The notes below the pieces were generated by a model that saw only the letters and a list, made by a program, of their open reading frames with translations, ran no database searches and had not been told where the DNA came from. From Escherichia phage dhaeg: a DNA stretch of 64,000 nucleotides. This document shows, one piece after another, positions 3,034 to 54,004 of the stretch. The DNA lies in the sequence record MN850609.1; one strand, given 5' to 3'. Both the position numbers and the translations under genes were made by a program. How positions within the stretch are numbered: the stretch's first letter is position 1; every line of letters starts with the position of its first letter.

Positions 3034-3525
3034 TCATTCCCACCAATCGATAGCGAACGTAGATTCGAAAGTTTCTACCTCGTTGTTTGAATCCCAATCC
3101 ATCTGGACTTCACCAACGTTAGTAGGCCATAAGCCATAAATTGTAACTTCTTTAGTCACAGTCTTACCATCACGGTGGAACTGTCGAACAATTGCTTGTT
3201 TCTTATATTCTGCAGGTGCAGCACCGGTAATTTCATTGGTCATACCGTGGCAGAGGTTTTGCCAATCGACAATTGCCTGACGGGTGTCATGGGCATCATC
3301 GTTATAAATGGTAATAGTCCAATCATCAAACGTACGGTCGCCAGCTACGTTAATTTTACGGTTCATGTAGCCAACCGGTACTTTTTCTACAATGCCTGCC
3401 GGCATAGGTGCTGCTTTACATTTAAAGCTAAAGTTTTTACCAAGAAATGGAATTTCCACTTCGAAAAGGTTAGGGCGTGCAAAGTCACCTGACTCAAACG
3501 CACGAGTGATATCTGTCAACTCCAT
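3034..3525 (-). CDS. 19: tail tube protein gp19
   Basis: Second ATG chosen (GAGG SD 7 nt upstream); gives 163 aa as in T4; ...TRAFESGDFARPNLF... matches recalled T4 gp19. Confidence 0.93.
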   Translation of the reverse strand: MELTDITRAFESGDFARPNLFEVEIPFLGKNFSFKCKAAPMPAGIVEKVPVGYMNRKINVAGDRTFDDWTITIYNDDAHDTRQAIVDWQNLCHGMTNEITGAAPAEYKKQAIVRQFHRDGKTVTKEVTIYGLWPTNVGEVQMDWDSNNEVETFESTFAIDWWE

Positions 3526-3543
3526 GGGATGCCTCATAAGTCA

Positions 3544-3564
3544 GTTCCTGGCCACACCAGGAAC
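3544..3564 (-). promoter_or_regulatory. 8-bp hairpin GTTCCTGG-CCACA-CCAGGAAC in the gene 19 leader
   Basis: Perfect inverted repeat between the late promoter at 3578-3585 and the gene 19 start. Confidence 0.4.
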
Positions 3565-3577
3565 GTTCTGATTAATT

Positions 3578-3585
3578 TATTTATA
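3578..3585 (-). promoter_or_regulatory. late promoter TATAAATA upstream of gene 19
   Basis: TATTTATA on plus strand in the 173-bp 18-19 spacer. Confidence 0.6.
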
Positions 3586-3620
3586 ACAGTTGATAAATCA
3601 TATTCCTGATAGTTAATCAA

Positions 3621-3710
3621 TCCCAGGCGCAATTCTACGTGATGTACGCTGTAACCAAACCCATGGTATAATGGTTTTAGGTTCTTTATATTACAGCCTG
3701 GGATAATAGA
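3621..3710 (-). repeat. intercistronic palindromic element, copy A (directly after gene 18 stop)
   Basis: mRNA-sense sequence TAA-TCTATTATCCCAGGC...GCGCCTGGGA; arms 3621-3628 / 3696-3703; same start and core as copy B at 28287-28347. Confidence 0.7.
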
Positions 3711-5693
3711 TTATACTAAAGGTCCAATCAATTCATCAAAATCAGCACCAGTGCTCGTTGCAACGAAGTTCAACGTGATGTAGTTAATAGAACGAGAAGG
3801 TTTTACGTATATATTAGCAATAAACTCGTTACGGTCGATAACCGCAGGGGTGTTCACTGTAGTATCACAAACCACACGTCCTTCATAAATCCCACCAAGT
3901 GCCTTAATACCATCTAAGTACTGAGAAACTTCCATACGGAAGCTTGAACGAGTGAAGTTATCGTTCAATTCAAACAGTTTATATTTAGAGGCATCACCGA
4001 TATTTTTCTTAAGCATGTTGAACAGACGGCGAACGTTAATGTGGTCCATCGGAGATGGAACTTTAGTTGCAGTCTTATCACCAAACAATACGAAACCATC
4101 ACCACCAGCAAAACCAACAACTGGGTTAATAGCTTCCTGGTACATGCGGTCGCGTTGTGCTTGGCGTGGTTCAATTGCCAATTTCAGAACGTTAAGAATC
4201 TGACCACGGTTATAACCAGCAGGAGACATCCAAGGCTGAGACACATCATCAGTACGTGCACACAAACCAGCCATATCAGCAGCCAGTGGTACCCAACGGT
4301 TTACGTCATTATATTTGTCATACTGATATTTATAGTTACCATCAATAGCAGCATAAGTGGTACTGATGTTCATGTTGTTGGCATCGAAATTACCAGCACC
4401 GGTACGCCAGTCAATAAGGTTATCTACTGCACGAGTCAGTGGAACGTTAACCAACAGTCCTTTAGGAGGAGAAATAAATGCTAAGCAATCCTGACGTTCA
4501 TCAGCAATACTCACAACGTGTTTCTGAACAGTAGAAGCCACTTCGTCGCCTTCACCAGCAACAGCACCGGCAATAAGCAGGTTAATATGGAGTGCTTCAC
4601 GATCGGCAAACAAATCCCAACCTTGCATCAAATCGCCTGCAGTAACTTTATCGTTAGCAGAAACACCGCCCATCAGATTAATGATACCGCTGAAGCCTTT
4701 AGGCCAGTTCAAAGAGGTAGCAAAAATATAGTTGGAAGTACCTTTAGCGAAATAGTCGTCAAGATAAATGTTATTACCGTAAACGTCTTTTTCACCTTCT
4801 TTGGTAGAAAGTACGACAGATTCTACGATAGCGCCATCGCGACGAACAATAATTGCGTATTGGTCATCTGTTTGCGGTCCGTAATTAAATACTGCCTTGG
4901 CAATAGAAGCACGGGTACCACCGCCAGGATAAATATCCAGCATTTTAGAAGAACCAGCATCATAAGCGGCTTTGGAAACGATTTCTACTTCCAGAGTAGA
5001 ACCAATTTCACCGGGATAAAGAGCCACTACGCCTGGCATAGCAAATTTCTTAAGAGAAGCTTGGAATTCAAGAGAAGTAATAGCTTCTTCACTATTCTCT
5101 GCTTCAGTCAAAAGAATACCGGAATCCGTAACAATTTTACCTACGGTAATAGTACCAGAAACACCGGAAGATGCAGAAGTAACTTCAGCGGTCCAAGCTG
5201 GGCCAAGGGTAGGATACTGGTTTAAAGAACGTGCATAAGCAATAATTTTTGCTGACGGAATAAACACGGAAAGAATTTTACCGTCTGTATCTACAGAAGT
5301 CACACGACCTTCAGATTCGACTACAGTTTGGTTATATTTAATATTGATTTTATCGCCTACTGCATAGTTGGAACCGGCCGTAGTAATAGTGGTCTCAATG
5401 TTACCAGCGATAGGAGATGCGTTTTTAGCAAATTCGCGACTAACAACACGAACTGTGCGAAGGTCATTACCATACTGGAGGAAGTTCATACCAGACATAA
5501 AGTAATCTGCTACTTCGTTATTAGGACCTCCAAATAAATCAACCAGTTCAACTTCATTAGTAATCTGAGTTACCTGGAAAGCAGGGCCCCACTGGAATTT
5601 ACCTACCAGCGCTGCACGACCCGTTGCGTTACGAACGACAGTACTCTGTACGGACGTTTCTTTGAGCTCAATGCCCGGTGATAATAAAGCCAT
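3711..5693 (-). CDS. 18: tail sheath protein gp18
   Basis: 660 aa (T4 659); MALLSPGIELKETSVQSTVV start; synteny. Confidence 0.95.
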   Translation of the reverse strand: MALLSPGIELKETSVQSTVVRNATGRAALVGKFQWGPAFQVTQITNEVELVDLFGGPNNEVADYFMSGMNFLQYGNDLRTVRVVSREFAKNASPIAGNIETTITTAGSNYAVGDKINIKYNQTVVESEGRVTSVDTDGKILSVFIPSAKIIAYARSLNQYPTLGPAWTAEVTSASSGVSGTITVGKIVTDSGILLTEAENSEEAITSLEFQASLKKFAMPGVVALYPGEIGSTLEVEIVSKAAYDAGSSKMLDIYPGGGTRASIAKAVFNYGPQTDDQYAIIVRRDGAIVESVVLSTKEGEKDVYGNNIYLDDYFAKGTSNYIFATSLNWPKGFSGIINLMGGVSANDKVTAGDLMQGWDLFADREALHINLLIAGAVAGEGDEVASTVQKHVVSIADERQDCLAFISPPKGLLVNVPLTRAVDNLIDWRTGAGNFDANNMNISTTYAAIDGNYKYQYDKYNDVNRWVPLAADMAGLCARTDDVSQPWMSPAGYNRGQILNVLKLAIEPRQAQRDRMYQEAINPVVGFAGGDGFVLFGDKTATKVPSPMDHINVRRLFNMLKKNIGDASKYKLFELNDNFTRSSFRMEVSQYLDGIKALGGIYEGRVVCDTTVNTPAVIDRNEFIANIYVKPSRSINYITLNFVATSTGADFDELIGPLV

Positions 5694-27012: not shown

Positions 27013-27462
27013 ATGGCTTACTCAGGGAAATTTAAACCTACAAACTTACAAAAATATAAAGGTGACTGGAAGAAAATCCAATATCGTTCCTCTTGGGAAG
27101 CATGGCTAATGAGATGGCTTGATAATCATCCTAATGTAGTCCAATGGAATTCAGAAGAGGTTGTGATTCCATATTTTTGTAATGCTGAAGGAAAGAAACG
27201 TCGATATTATATGGACTTCTGGGTTAAGTTTGATAATGGTCAACAATTCTTTTTTGAAGTCAAACCTTTTAAAGAGACCCACCCTCCAGCGATTCCGGTA
27301 AAAATGACCACTGCCGCTAAAAAGAGATATATTAACGAACATTATACTTGGTCTGTGAATAGTGACAAGTGGAAAGCCGCTAAAGCTACCGCAGATAAAA
27401 TGGGTATCAACTTTAGATTGATTACCGAACATTCACTGAAAAAATTAGGATGGAAAGGATGA
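27013..27462 (+). CDS. 4: head completion protein gp4
   Basis: 149 aa; MAYSGK..P.N..KY.GD.KKI.YRS.WE...[15 protein letters not shown]... matches recalled T4 gp4. Confidence 0.95.
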
Positions 27463-28286
27463 GTATATTTTCCTACATCAATGAGGCCACTGAAACCACA
27501 AAAGGTTCTAAGCCTACTCGTTCAGAGCAACAATGGATAGCTTTAGGTGTTGAATATGCCAAAGCTAAGGCCAAAGGTGTCTCGTCTAAGAAATTCGCTG
27601 AAGATAAAGGCATTAAGTATTCTAGCTTTACATCTGCGATGTCTCGATACTCGAGTCGAATTAAAACTGCCGTACAGGTCGAAAAACTTCAGAAGAAACC
27701 TGGCAATAAATTGACCAAAGCCGAACGTCAATTAATTTTGGTGAATAGTTTTAGAAAGAGTATTCGTGATAAGATTGCTAACGAAGGCGCTGCTGTAAAC
27801 AATAAATCAGCTAAATGGTTTACAGAAACATTAAAGAAAGGAATTCGTGGACACCAGGTATCTAAACCATCTCCTGGTAAGCTTTATGCTTATATCTATG
27901 ATGCTAAACACAAGGACACATTACCCTACTGGGACAAATATCCTTTAATCATTTATCTTGGGCTCGGTAAGCATAATCTGATGTATGGGTTGAACTTACA
28001 CTATATTCCGCCTAAAGCACGCCAACAATTTCTAGAAGAATTGCTGAAGCAATACGCGAGTACGCCTACCATTACGAACTCGACCAAATTAAAAATTGAT
28101 TGGAGTAAGGTAAAAGGATTTGCTGGTGCTGACGCGATGATTAAGGCTTATATCCCTGGAAATATCAAGGGACCTTTAGTAGAGATAAAACCTTCTGATT
28201 GGGCTAATGTCGTAATGATGCCTCTCCAGCAGTTCATGTCTAAAGGTAAGCGTTACTCAGCTCAGAAAGTATGGAAGAACGCATAA
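27459..28286 (+). CDS. 2: DNA end-protector protein gp2
   Basis: ATGA overlap with the gene 4 stop; 275 aa (T4 274); synteny 4-2-3. The track ORF starts 9 nt earlier at 27450. Confidence 0.88.
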
Positions 28287-28347
28287 TCTATTATCCCAGC
28301 CAGTTATTGAATGGAACAGACCTAGGACCATTATACACTGTCTGGGA
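28287..28347 (+). repeat. intercistronic palindromic element, copy B (directly after gene 2 stop)
   Basis: TAA-TCTATTATCCCAGCCAG...CTGTCTGGGA; arms 28295-28303 / 28338-28346 (9 bp, 1 mismatch); core ACCTAGGACCATTATAC shared with copy A. Confidence 0.7.
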
Positions 28348-28368
28348 CTTAAGCAATATAGGAATCCT

Positions 28369-28959
28369 ATGAACGGTTTATTTAACCAAACTAACACTAC
28401 CAACTTTATCTTAGAGGTTAGTGACTCAGGAATGACGCAGTCATTCAAATTGAACGTACAAGATGTAACACTACCGGGTATCCATATTCCTATCTCAGAC
28501 GTCCCCGGATCGACCCAGGGCATACATCGTGCTAAGCTGCCAGGTTCTACAGTAGAATTCGATCCCTTGATTGTAAACTTTCTTGTAGACCGTGAGTTGA
28601 AATCATGGATGGACGTTTATAAATGGATGCTATCATTAAACAACTATGTAACACATGAATCCGAAGCCTGGCATCCTAAAGGCTTGCCTGAAGCGATTAC
28701 CCTCCATATCCTTGATAACAACAAACAGAAAATCGTAATGAGCATTCATTACTACGGCGGTTGGCCATCCGACTTATCGGAAATCCAATACTCGTATAAA
28801 GAAGATTCTGACCCTGCTATAATCGCTACGGCAACATTCAACTTCAAGTCGTTTGCTGTAGAAATAGATGGTACAATAGTTACAGGTCGTCCACAAATTG
28901 ATTCGTATGCCGAACAACGTGTGGCTCGTATGTCTATGCATCCATCTATGAGAAAATAA
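28369..28959 (+). CDS. 3: tail completion / tube terminator protein gp3 (by position)
   Basis: 196 aa ORF between genes 2 and 1, as gene 3 is in T4 (176 aa); I cannot recall the sequence well enough to confirm. Confidence 0.7.
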   Translation: MNGLFNQTNTTNFILEVSDSGMTQSFKLNVQDVTLPGIHIPISDVPGSTQGIHRAKLPGSTVEFDPLIVNFLVDRELKSWMDVYKWMLSLNNYVTHESEAWHPKGLPEAITLHILDNNKQKIVMSIHYYGGWPSDLSEIQYSYKEDSDPAIIATATFNFKSFAVEIDGTIVTGRPQIDSYAEQRVARMSMHPSMRK

Positions 28960-31969: not shown

Positions 31970-32043
31970 GGCCCTGTAGCTGGACGGTCAAGCGAGCGAC
32001 TCATAATCGCTGGATGGTGGTTCGATTCCACCCAGGGCCACCA
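31970..32043 (+). tRNA. tRNA with CAU anticodon (Met, or Ile if C34 is modified)
   Basis: Cloverleaf by hand: acceptor GGCCCTG/CAGGGCC, anticodon stem AGCGA/TCGCT, loop CTCATAA, T-arm GGTGG-TTCGATT-CCACC, encoded CCA. Confidence 0.9.
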
Positions 32044-32047
32044 ATTT

Positions 32048-32122
32048 GGATGTGTAGCTCAGTGGTAGAGCAGTTGACTGTTAATCAATTGGTCCATGGT
32101 TCGAATCCATGCATGTCCGCCA
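32048..32122 (+). tRNA. tRNA-Asn (GUU)
   Basis: Acceptor GGATGTG/CATGTCC (two G-U pairs), D-arm GCTC..GAGC, loop CTGTTAA, T-arm CATGG-TTCGAAT-CCATG, encoded CCA. Confidence 0.9.
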
Positions 32123-32126
32123 AATA

Positions 32127-32202
32127 CGAGGCATAGCTCAGAAGGAAGAGCAAGGACCTTCTAAGTCCTGGGTCGTAGGTTCGATCCCTACTGTCTCGAC
32201 CA
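32127..32202 (+). tRNA. tRNA-Arg (UCU)
   Basis: Acceptor CGAGGCA/TGTCTCG, D-arm GCTC..GAGC, anticodon stem AGGAC/GTCCT, loop CTTCTAA, T-arm GTAGG-TTCGATC-CCTAC, encoded CCA. Confidence 0.9.
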
Positions 32203-35851: not shown

Positions 35852-36138
35852 ATAAAATTGAAATTGAAATCCCTGAATACAACGACGAGAAATCTGCAGA
35901 AAAAGCTATCTATGCTCTTCTGAATAAAGTAGATATCATCGAATCCAAATGTGAAGCTATTGCCGATAAGTACGGTATTCAATTCGGAACAGGTGATTAT
36001 GGCTCAGGACGTACATACTATCCGGTCGGTTATGAATGCTCCCAGTGGTTTAAAGATGAAATTGAAAACAATGGCGGTGAAGTTGAAAATGGCGTCGTTA
36101 CAGTTGGTGCCTGGGTCTCCTCTTCGGCAATGTGCTAA
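35848..36138 (+). CDS. W-x-SSS-x-x-C family small protein, paralog 1
   Basis: 96 aa, ATGA-coupled to the upstream gene; ends GAWVSSSAMC-stop. Confidence 0.7.
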   Translation: MNKIEIEIPEYNDEKSAEKAIYALLNKVDIIESKCEAIADKYGIQFGTGDYGSGRTYYPVGYECSQWFKDEIENNGGEVENGVVTVGAWVSSSAMC

Positions 36139-36147
36139 GGAAAAGCT

Positions 36148-36429
36148 ATGATGAATGATAATCATAACCATCCAGAGCTTCTGGCCGCAGTAAAAGAAAT
36201 TCATGAAGCTATTCGTCGTGCCGAGGAAATTGCAGATAAATATGAGACTCATTTTAATATATACCCTGCTCGCGGTATGGGCGGTGACTATTATTCTCCT
36301 GGCGCCTTGAAAGCTGACCTTGCCCATTGGGAAGAAGATGGTCATCCTGAATGGGCTATTGTTAATACTCATGACTATACAACTGACCTCGCAACTGGCG
36401 GTTGGGTGTCCTCTTCTTCTGAATGTTAA
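36148..36429 (+). CDS. W-x-SSS-x-x-C family small protein, paralog 2
   Basis: 93 aa; ends GGWVSSSSEC-stop; TAAGGA SD fused to the upstream stop. Confidence 0.7.
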   Translation: MMNDNHNHPELLAAVKEIHEAIRRAEEIADKYETHFNIYPARGMGGDYYSPGALKADLAHWEEDGHPEWAIVNTHDYTTDLATGGWVSSSSEC

Positions 36430-36438
36430 GGAAATATT

Positions 36439-36636
36439 ATGTCTCGTGAATTAGATTGTGCAATCCGAACTGCCGCGGCGGCAATTGAAAACGTTATTCA
36501 AATTTGTAAAGAAGAACGCGAAGAAGCTGATATCTATATTGATGGTGCTCGTGACTTAGAACGACATATAACGCTTTATAACGGTTGTATTACTATTAGT
36601 GGTACCTCTTGGGTGTCCTCTTCTTACGAATGCTAA
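36439..36636 (+). CDS. W-x-SSS-x-x-C family small protein, paralog 3
   Basis: 65 aa; ends TSWVSSSYEC-stop. Confidence 0.7.
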   Translation: MSRELDCAIRTAAAAIENVIQICKEEREEADIYIDGARDLERHITLYNGCITISGTSWVSSSYEC

Positions 36637-36645
36637 GGTAATAAA

Positions 36646-36858
36646 ATGACTATTGATGAAATTGAAAAACAAATCCGTGAATTAGTACGTAAAGGCCAGT
36701 CCGTGGCTGATGAAACAGGTGAAGAATTTTATGTTTCTGGACGCGGTCAATACATTTCTCCAAAGAATCCAGAATATGATGATTACGAATGGGTCCGTGA
36801 TGACTACGGTATCCCAGAAGGTGAAGGTTTCTGGTTTAGCTCCTCTATGTCTTGCTAA
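36646..36858 (+). CDS. W-x-SSS-x-x-C family small protein, paralog 4
   Basis: 70 aa; ends GFWFSSSMSC-stop. Confidence 0.7.
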   Translation: MTIDEIEKQIRELVRKGQSVADETGEEFYVSGRGQYISPKNPEYDDYEWVRDDYGIPEGEGFWFSSSMSC

Positions 36859-49693: not shown

Positions 49694-50254
49694 ATGATTA
49701 TTGAAACATCTGGGCTGTTTGGTGACCTGACTGCTGAAGTAGTTGATAATGCAATTGTGCTTTCACAAGAAGACGATAAAATCGTACTGACTATCCAAGA
49801 TATCAAGCCGCTTTATGATTTAAAGGTTTTGGACAAACACGAATATCTTAATGGCAGATTTAGAGGTGTATTTGATATTAATGATGGTTTATGGGCCCAG
49901 ATTTATAACCATGACAAAGGGTTTAATTTGGAAACAGACGGAGAATGTCTGAGCATTAGCGATTCTAGTAATTTCTTTAAATGTATTTTTAAACTGTTCC
50001 AGGAAGAATGCAAGCCGGAAGTTGAATGGAAAGTCCCTGGTCAAGATGCCGTAATTCGTTCTAGTGAAACATTTGAAGGTGATGAAGAAGAAATGGATTA
50101 TGATACCGAACTAACCGTGTATCAACACCAGGGCCGTGATTTGCTATCCTTGGTCCAAAGACACGACGGTGAAAATGAAGTTGTATTTACGAAGGACGAG
50201 CTAAAAGTTTTAGTATCTTATCTGAACTCTGTTATCCCAACTATGAACTCTTAA
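49694..50254 (+). CDS. hypothetical protein
   Basis: 186 aa, GAGGAA SD. Confidence 0.6.
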   Translation: MIIETSGLFGDLTAEVVDNAIVLSQEDDKIVLTIQDIKPLYDLKVLDKHEYLNGRFRGVFDINDGLWAQIYNHDKGFNLETDGECLSISDSSNFFKCIFKLFQEECKPEVEWKVPGQDAVIRSSETFEGDEEEMDYDTELTVYQHQGRDLLSLVQRHDGENEVVFTKDELKVLVSYLNSVIPTMNS

Positions 50255-53942: not shown

Positions 53943-53967
53943 CGCTTTATACCAAGGATGGTATAAT
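53943..53967 (+). promoter_or_regulatory. candidate middle promoter (MotA-box-like CGCTTTA-12 bp-TATAAT)
   Basis: Spacing fits T4 middle promoters; core GGTATAATGGTTCTAGGTTCTT also occurs at 3664-3686. Confidence 0.5.
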
Positions 53968-54004
53968 GGTTCTAGGTTCTTAATTACTTACTGAGGAAAT
54001 TATT

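Follow-up and report, generated by a model that had tools for sequence, protein, structure and literature searches.

Two related spacers follow late genes 18 and 2

We analysed a 64,000-nucleotide (nt) stretch of Escherichia phage dhaeg (MN850609.1; this whole stretch is hereafter called the window), in which two late intergenic spacers carry a similar short element directly after the stop codon of the upstream gene. Copy A lies between genes 18 and 19 (18|19), which encode the tail sheath and the tail tube, and copy B lies between genes 2 and 3 (2|3) (Table 1). The window is about 99.8% identical to Escherichia phage dhabil (MN850621.1), with which it aligns in reverse orientation; in the 3-kb stretch around the finding the identity to dhabil is 99.9%. 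The phage is a Dhakavirus, of the JS98 group of T4-like phages.

The similar spacers downstream of genes 18 and 2 are related. In mRNA sense both begin TAA-TCTATTATCCCAG (copy A, 3698-3713 on the minus strand; copy B, 28284-28299), and both contain the core ACCTA(A/G)(A/G)ACCATTATAC, as an initial annotation of this DNA had noted; the copies have a run of 16 identical nt in common (TAATCTATTATCCCAG). Aligned locally, the spacers scored 43, compared to 15.5 +/- 2.4 for 2,000 shuffles (maximum 28; z = 11). Within the 64 kb each copy is the other's best non-self partner, and the exact 13-mer is found at no further site. In the whole 165.6-kb dhabil genome, GATAATAGA, the reverse complement of the box that follows each stop codon, occurs in the two elements only. 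The element is present at no other late junction, and each copy is bound to the polarity of its own late operon, both as the initial annotation had it. The two copies that it delimited are real, but the functional part of copy B ends at 28355, past the 28347 given there. Copies within one genome also share lineage-specific details, namely, ATCCCAG in Dhakavirus and ATCG plus TAGAACC in VR20.

The shared core carries middle-promoter motifs on the opposite strand

On the other strand from the late genes, ACCATTATAC reads GTATAATGG, which is a perfect sigma70 -10 element. Middle promoters of T4 are defined by a MotA box, (a/t)(a/t)(a/t)TGCTTtA, located 12 +/- 1 bp from TAtaaT (PMC2988021). The antisense strand of copy B reads TATTGCTTAA-13-TATAATGG, with a MotA box core that matches at 6 of 7 positions; that of copy A reads ACGCTGTAA-13-(TGG)TATAATGG, with a weak box of 5/7. 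The homologues in T4 and VR20 have a 7/7 box. Box and -10 are separated by 13 nt in both copies, within the defined range, and the -10 is TATAAT in both, with an extended TGn in copy A. In copy B, the 13-nt promoter spacer is at the same time the 3' arm of the hairpin described below. By analogy with mapped T4 starts, transcription is predicted to begin at 28323 on the minus strand and at 3679 on the plus strand.

The activators that such promoters would use are encoded in dhabil, outside the region corresponding to the window: MotA is dhabil_48 (activator of middle transcription) and AsiA is dhabil_42 (anti-sigma factor). The pattern TGCTTNA-N11-13-TANNNT matches 11 times in the window, against 3.6 expected. 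Dhabil contains 45 candidates with a box, spacer and TAnnnT, compared to 17 in shuffles; 34 of them are co-oriented with genes, and the 11 antisense ones include the homologue of T4 promoter P34i and both elements. The initial annotation had correctly seen related copies, operon polarity and a hairpin, but it had missed that the shared core, taken on the other strand, corresponds to a T4-type middle promoter from its -10 through the discriminator to the start region. A sense-strand promoter in the spacers was considered and rejected: copy A has weak sigma70-like matches over the gene 18 stop codon, and copy B has none. Judged from its sequence, the module is probably best read as a MotA/AsiA-dependent middle promoter, antisense to the preceding late gene and laid over a sense post-stop hairpin.

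Separately, dhabil carries at about 49750-49785 (plus strand of MN850621.1, outside the window) a middle-type promoter of perfect consensus, TTTTTTGCTTTA-12-TATAAT. It lies in the dhabil_77/dhabil_78 spacer and faces against the surrounding early genes.

Table 1. Genes and sequence features of the two junctions, with one related promoter (window coordinates)
Feature	Position	Strand	Sequence or remark
Gene 18 (tail sheath)	3711-5693	-	
Gene 19 (tail tube)	3034-3525 or 3034-3537	-	
Copy A, gene 18 stop and post-stop box	3702-3713	-	stop 3711-3713; box TCTATTATC 3702-3710
Copy A, hairpin outer arms	3620-3704	-	ATCCCAGGC (3696-3704) / GCCTGGGAT (3620-3628); perfect 9 bp
Copy A, alternative inner arms		-	GCTGTAA (3691-3697) / TTACAGC (3648-3654)
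Copy A, predicted backward-facing middle-type promoter, into gene 18 antisense	3647-3679	+	from sequence; MotA-like box CGCTGTA 3647-3653; 13-nt spacer; TGn 3664-3666; -10 TATAAT 3667-3672
Copy A, predicted start	3679	+	A
Late-promoter consensus of gene 19, in 18|19 spacer downstream of copy A	3578-3585	-	TATAAATA
Second hairpin, just upstream of gene 19 ribosome-binding site	3544-3564	-	GTTCCTGGTGTGGCCAGGAAC
Gene 2	27450-28286	+	
Gene 3	28369-28959	+	
Copy B, gene 2 stop and post-stop box	28284-28295	+	stop 28284-28286; box TCTATTATC 28287-28295
Copy B, hairpin arms	28295-28346	+	CCCAGCCAGT (28295-28304) / ACTGTCTGGG (28337-28346); 10 bp, one C.T mismatch
Copy B, predicted backward-facing middle-type promoter, into gene 2 antisense	28323-28355	-	from sequence; MotA box TGCTTAA 28349-28355; 13-nt spacer; -10 TATAAT 28330-28335
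Copy B, predicted start	28323	-	A
Sense intergenic middle-type promoter upstream of nrdC.6-like gene	53943-53976	+	ATGGTATAATGGTTCTAGGTTCTT; core as copy A

Gene 19 has two in-frame ATGs, at 3525 and 3537, and GAGG lies 8 nt upstream of the former. The start is probably 3525, because the alignment with relatives begins at residue 5 and the dhabil annotation uses the shorter form.

Conservation of the module in T4-like phages

We gathered 2|3 spacers from other T4-like phages and examined a 12-sequence alignment for invariant columns. The module is found at 2|3 in T4 and its close relatives, Dhakavirus, Gaprivervirus VR20, Kanagawavirus (the members compared were PEi20, CIP9-like, Kosakonia 305 and KLB31), phage PM2 and two more distant contigs. 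All carriers keep the MotA box (at least 5/7), and nearly all keep the 13-nt gap between box and -10, which is ambiguous in one distant contig. TATAAT is present in every carrier bar the divergent contig L196, which has TACAAT and retains the box and the 13-nt spacer. The sequence of the spacer itself differs freely among lineages. The columns that do not vary are the stop codon and box, TAATCTAT.A.C; CTA at the predicted start; ACCATTATA, the -10; AAGC, the MotA box core; and the GG of the gene 3 Shine-Dalgarno sequence. On this comparison, an opposite-strand promoter accounts for the invariant columns better than any sense-RNA motif. After gene 2, the post-stop box also occurs in T4, Gaprivervirus, Kanagawavirus and PM2. 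Where a lineage has a very short 2|3 spacer, the module is missing, and there it is therefore dispensable.

At 18|19, the backward-facing grammar occurs in Dhakavirus, Gaprivervirus and the F48-like Klebsiella phages. The 18|19 spacer of T4 has no backward promoter; it contains two plain hairpins, each followed by a late promoter. Within Dhakavirus, the positions that are polymorphic in copy A lie outside the post-stop box, the -10 and the MotA-like box.

Likeness to mapped T4 middle promoters

The T4 promoter sequences were read at the mapped starts in Hinton's table of 58 middle promoters. The antisense strand of the T4 2|3 spacer, AATGCTTTATAACTGTTGGTGGTATAATGGGTCT-A-AGTCC, is identical at 20 of 22 positions, from -16 to +6, to the mapped promoter PuvsY/oriF, AATGCTTCACGTTAAAACGTGGTATAATGAATCT-A-AGTCC. 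The mapped P34i/oriG is TTTGCTTCA..AGTGTATAATGGTCCC-A, and P34i read at its mapped start gives TTTGCTTCAAGAATATTAAGTGTATAATGGTCCC-A. In dhabil, the homologues of PuvsY, of P34i (antisense inside gene 34), of PrnlB and of the nrdC.6 promoter all carry (G)TATAATGG(T/G)(T/C)C.., and copy B equals the dhabil uvsY-upstream promoter from -15 to +2. The core of copy A differs by one base from the nrdC.6 promoter of the window and is identical, at 24 of 24 positions, to the nrdC.6 promoter of phage LHE83. This second LHE83 site was rejected as a third copy of the element, being a 24-nt identity to a sense middle promoter; that identity supports the promoter reading of copy A.

Both of these T4 promoters resemble the elements in part. 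Like them, P34i (oriG/ori34) is a MotA-type promoter in the late region, antisense to a late gene (RefSeq note), and its core AGTGTATAATGGTCCC-A almost equals that of copy B, AGTGTATAATGGTCCT-A. However, P34i lies inside a coding sequence and not in a post-stop spacer, it has no post-stop box, which both elements here possess, and it has proven origin activity and is followed by an unwinding element, of which none was seen here. PuvsY, in addition to the identities given above, differs in being in sense and driving uvsY, whereas the elements face away from the next gene and drive no open reading frame (ORF).

PuvsY/oriF and P34i/oriG are promoters of T4 R-loop origins (PMC3016281). The closest sequence relatives of the elements are the two known R-loop origin promoters, and the module could be an origin-like element of the oriF/oriG type, in which the backward transcript would stay as an R-loop and prime the leading strand or open the DNA. 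A middle-mode promoter, as in a T4 R-loop origin, is present by sequence; P34i is itself antisense inside a late gene; and about 2 kb separate the T4 2|3 copy from the oriE region, near which a review reports no middle promoters (PMC3016281). On the other hand, we found no A+T-rich unwinding element, which an origin of this type requires, downstream of either start: from +1 to +80 the G+C content is 36% (copy A) and 41% (copy B) compared to 39.4% for the window, which places these 80 nt at the 26th and 59th G+C percentiles, respectively. The ordinary middle promoters of rnlB and nrdC.6 share the core, so the core is not origin specific, and no T4 origin has been mapped at 2|3 or 18|19. Taken together, we regard an origin at these sites as improbable.

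A hairpin after the stop codon and its possible role in late mRNA

The long hairpin proposed in the initial annotation is real in both copies, with its closing arms and the inner pairing of copy A (Table 1). The predicted fold of copy A has a minimum free energy of -28.6 kcal/mol (z -3.1). That of copy B is -19 kcal/mol (z -1.4), and the copy B fold alone is therefore not exceptional. Among the Dhakavirus and Kanagawavirus 2|3 copies, the pair A15-U63 is AU in 4, GC in 3 and GU in 2, a compensatory change from A-U to G-C via G.U intermediates, and the given structure beats both shuffled and slid controls. The stems of VR20, PM2 and T4 are made of other sequences, and in T4 the -10 is not enclosed by the stem. 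For every lineage a stable stem is predicted whose loop holds the -10 or adjoins it (z -1.8 to -5.5). An antisense RNA that starts in the loop would contain one arm only, so an RNA-level role of the stem would have to lie in the sense transcript. Since the hairpin is kept by compensatory change and rebuilt in other genera, a role of the stem-loop in late mRNA is possible.

Such a role might be the only one. The AU-rich box next to the stop codon and the stem-loop would then work purely at the level of the late mRNA: they could, for instance, let RNase E enter while the hairpin shields the 3' end, hold up decay, or uncouple translation at 18|19 and 2|3. The promoter-like strand would be unused. 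This would fit a hairpin that is found in all lineages with one clearly covarying pair and whose two arms are contained only in the sense transcript. It would also fit the position of the box, which abuts the stop codon in both copies and, where an endonuclease gene is inserted, the stop codon of that gene; the location of the copies just upstream of the paralogous tail-tube-family genes 3 and 19; and a list of mapped T4 middle promoters with no entry here. Nevertheless, the columns that are invariant are the MotA box, the fixed 13-nt gap and TATAAT, whereas the sequence and position of the stem vary by genus, to the point that in T4 the core is not enclosed by the stem. A sense-RNA element predicts neither the 20/22 identity to PuvsY nor the 24/24 identity to a sense promoter. 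The element in hand also has no U-tract, and so is no intrinsic terminator, and no Rfam match. We consider a purely late-mRNA element unlikely.

An intrinsic (Rho-independent) terminator was rejected on a scan that called neither element; no T-run follows either stem on either strand. The Rfam search gave no match at the elements. Its gathering-threshold hits were three tRNAs elsewhere, and a scan at relaxed E-value added one chance hit. Three tRNA genes are in tandem at 31970-32199 (plus strand), and dhabil labels the homologous cluster tRNA-Met, tRNA-Asn and tRNA-Arg.

Ordinary T4 late punctuation offers a sense-strand comparison. Most T4-like 18|19 spacers, that of T4 included, have a post-stop hairpin followed by TATAAATA, an arrangement also found in the window downstream of copy A. 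Unlike the module, this punctuation consists of short G+C-rich stems without a conserved loop, antisense promoter or post-stop box. In the window, the gene 19 leader contains a 9-bp hairpin, GTTCCTGG..CCAGGAAC, after TATAAATA, which would be present in late transcripts from that promoter. The proteins encoded directly downstream of copies B and A, gp3 and gp19 (28369-28956 and 3037-3525), are weak paralogues (BLASTP E = 0.001) with a common YG.WP..[LV].E[IV]Q motif. Both are members of the tail-tube family, which may or may not matter here.

Homing endonucleases at the element boundary

In dhabil, the 2|3 junction contains a 639-bp HNH homing-endonuclease ORF, dhabil_208 (phrog_655; MN850621.1, 110259-110897), which is absent from the window (28286/28287). 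The insertion is ORF precise: it lies between the gene 2 stop codon and TCTATTATC, with a TAATG start overlap, and its own TAA abuts the box. The same HNH ORF occupies the same TAA/box point in other Dhakaviruses (QL01, C6), a Gaprivervirus and Kosakonia phage 305. At 18|19, phrog_5104 ORFs are found just 5' of the element (UP19 and QL01) or before gene 19 (vB_EcoM_005 and five other genera).

Compared to dhabil, the window has 15 mismatches in the 64 nt at 28208-28271, at the 3' end of gene 2; the preceding 4.2 kb match perfectly, and within the element there is a single base difference. The patch changes VVMM to VTLL and includes a TCA-to-AGT swap of a serine codon. It is probably an endonuclease target or immunity patch or a co-conversion tract. 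The element is also present in endonuclease-free genomes of five genera, including T4. Since it is kept without the endonuclease and the divergence lies upstream, it does not belong to the cassette and is probably not what the enzyme targets. The stop-codon boundary would be the one insertion point that spares both the gene and the module. The free-standing homing-endonuclease sites of T4-like phages (PMC2988022) likewise involve intergenic insertion next to regulatory signals, but here the element is older than the endonuclease genes and does not depend on them.

The initial annotation had offered a small insertion, similar to a miniature inverted-repeat transposable element (MITE), as an alternative. 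Terminal inverted arms, an identical 16-mer in two copies, phrog_655 (2|3) and phrog_5104 (18|19) ORFs at the 5' edge of the element (in dhabil, QL01, C6, UP19, a Gaprivervirus and Kosakonia 305) and small TAATCT duplications at the edge in some relatives are what one would expect of such an insertion, or of the flank or homing site of a homing endonuclease. The MITE alternative fits poorly, however: each genome has only two copies, target-site duplications are absent, and in comparisons between genera it is the interior that is conserved and the arms that vary, the opposite of what MITEs show. In at least five genera, genomes that lack the endonuclease gene, T4 among them, have the element at this junction, and between the two kinds of allele it changes by one base, against the 15/64-nt divergent patch upstream in gene 2. 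That the 2|3 spacer was lately transferred or co-converted between genera is not supported, as its identity to Kanagawavirus is about the same as that of the flanking coding DNA. A scan of IMG/VR for the 14-mer ATCTATTATCCCAG returned 120 loci, almost all of them chance; the full element was seen in known Dhakavirus isolates only and no new loci emerged, hence no evidence of spread. A mobile element or its scar is, in our view, very unlikely.

We made further observations on insertions at these junctions. The 18|19 spacer is an insertion hot spot, in many T4-like genera, for phrog_5104 ORFs of about 190 to 230 amino acids listed as of unknown function. They are located at 1234-1903 in contig L005 (UP19) and at 1649-2305 in L138 (QL01), and just upstream of gene 19 in L141, L143, L150, L158, L162 and L168. 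They share a C-terminal motif, AYQLDH..S..YGF.N...P.EIIG...NL...PWE.N, have no Pfam hit and are likely to be an uncharacterised HNH-like family of mobile endonucleases. The UP19/QL01 cassette carries its own GTTTAC-type early promoter and hairpin. Right after the gene 2 stop codon, tandem duplications at the stop/box boundary (TAATCT-TAATCT, TAATAAT, and TAATCTTCT twice followed by a partial third TAATCT) were found in L127/L179 (VR5), L126/L128 and L186 (CIP9-like); they may be footprints of endonuclease gain and loss or of repeated break repair.

The module can also be compared to the PeSL (promoter-early stem-loop) cassettes (PMC2839356, PMC4122927), which likewise are short composites of a stem-loop and a promoter motif that recur in T4-like genomes. 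PeSLs, however, carry early promoters that point the same way as the flanked genes, and they occupy hyperplastic early regions, whereas the module is of the middle (MotA) type, faces backward, lies in conserved late clusters in two copies and has no GTTTAC -35. The window does contain PeSL-like repeats: at 30598-53426 (plus strand), at least 10 copies of a 60- to 85-nt early-promoter cassette (repeat families D1-D4; GTTTACA..N17..GATACTATAGACCTATCAA) stand upstream of small ORFs. At 36111-36656 (plus strand), 3 copies of a 48-nt leader (family D6), TTGGGTGTCCTCTTC...AAGGAAAT..ATG, precede consecutive small ORFs and may be a shared translational operator or hairpin.

Proposed function of the module

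According to our model, the module consists of the 9-nt post-stop box TCTATTATC, the stem-loop and an opposite-strand middle promoter with a putative MotA box at -30, a 13-nt spacer and TATAAT. Before replication, host sigma70 polymerase remodelled by AsiA and MotA would start at about 3679 (plus) and 28323 (minus), making RNA antisense to the 3' end of gene 18 and to that of genes 2-4. Upon conversion of the polymerase for late transcription, the backward promoters would fall silent and the same DNA would be read in sense; the late transcript, which contains both arms, would then fold into the post-stop hairpin. The promoter grammar, its conservation across genera and the near-identity to mapped T4 promoters are evident in the sequences; the in vivo activity of the promoters, their start positions and the effect of their RNA are inferred. 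The antisense RNA would likely silence or interfere with premature sense transcripts or serve as a source of 'anti-late' RNA.

Several observations weigh against an active backward promoter. The MotA box of copy A (CGCTGTA) has GCTG at its centre and not GCTT, although the extended -10 TGn may compensate for this. The T4 counterpart, with perfect consensus and a predicted start at about 76,000 on the plus strand, is absent from the 58 mapped middle promoters; the table entry nearest to 76.0 kb is P1 at 75,393, in the opposite direction. Perhaps nobody looked for a promoter on that strand, or the site may have been tried and proved inactive. Downstream of the two predicted antisense starts there is neither a terminator nor a conserved ORF; a conserved small ORF was rejected there, with 14 codons in copy B and none in copy A. 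Wobble counts (G.U versus A.C), which would tell the folding strand, tied at 128 versus 128 paired cells. Finally, promoter function leaves the 16-nt identity of the copies and the constant company of the hairpin unexplained.

Implications for T4-like phages

Middle promoters are a familiar class, one of them being antisense within a late gene, and 'anti-late' RNA has long been known in the classical T4 literature. In the literature on antisense and middle promoters at these junctions and on anti-late RNA, we found no description of the module, and an earlier mention is possible. More speculatively, certain late genes of T4-like phages could end in conserved 'reverse punctuation', a class not listed so far, with a MotA-dependent antisense promoter in the post-stop hairpin. 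The antisense RNA would gate genes 2/4, 18 and inserted endonuclease genes until the late switch or seed R-loops as extra replication or clamp-loading sites by the tail genes. We hold this wider proposal, on which the T4 copy near 76,000 would be a missing middle promoter near oriE, to be conceivable but rather unlikely.

The spacers should not be annotated as simple terminators or MITEs. The module would explain why homing endonucleases land at the stop-codon boundary, the only place that leaves gene and module intact. T4 is the reference system for the temporal control of phage transcription, and a backward promoter of perfect consensus, conserved at 2|3 from T4 to Kanagawavirus and almost identical in sequence to the oriF promoter, has nonetheless stayed outside its standard table. 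If active, these promoters would be a defined source of 'anti-late' RNA, and with the module one could test for antisense control, or for R-loop formation, at late genes.

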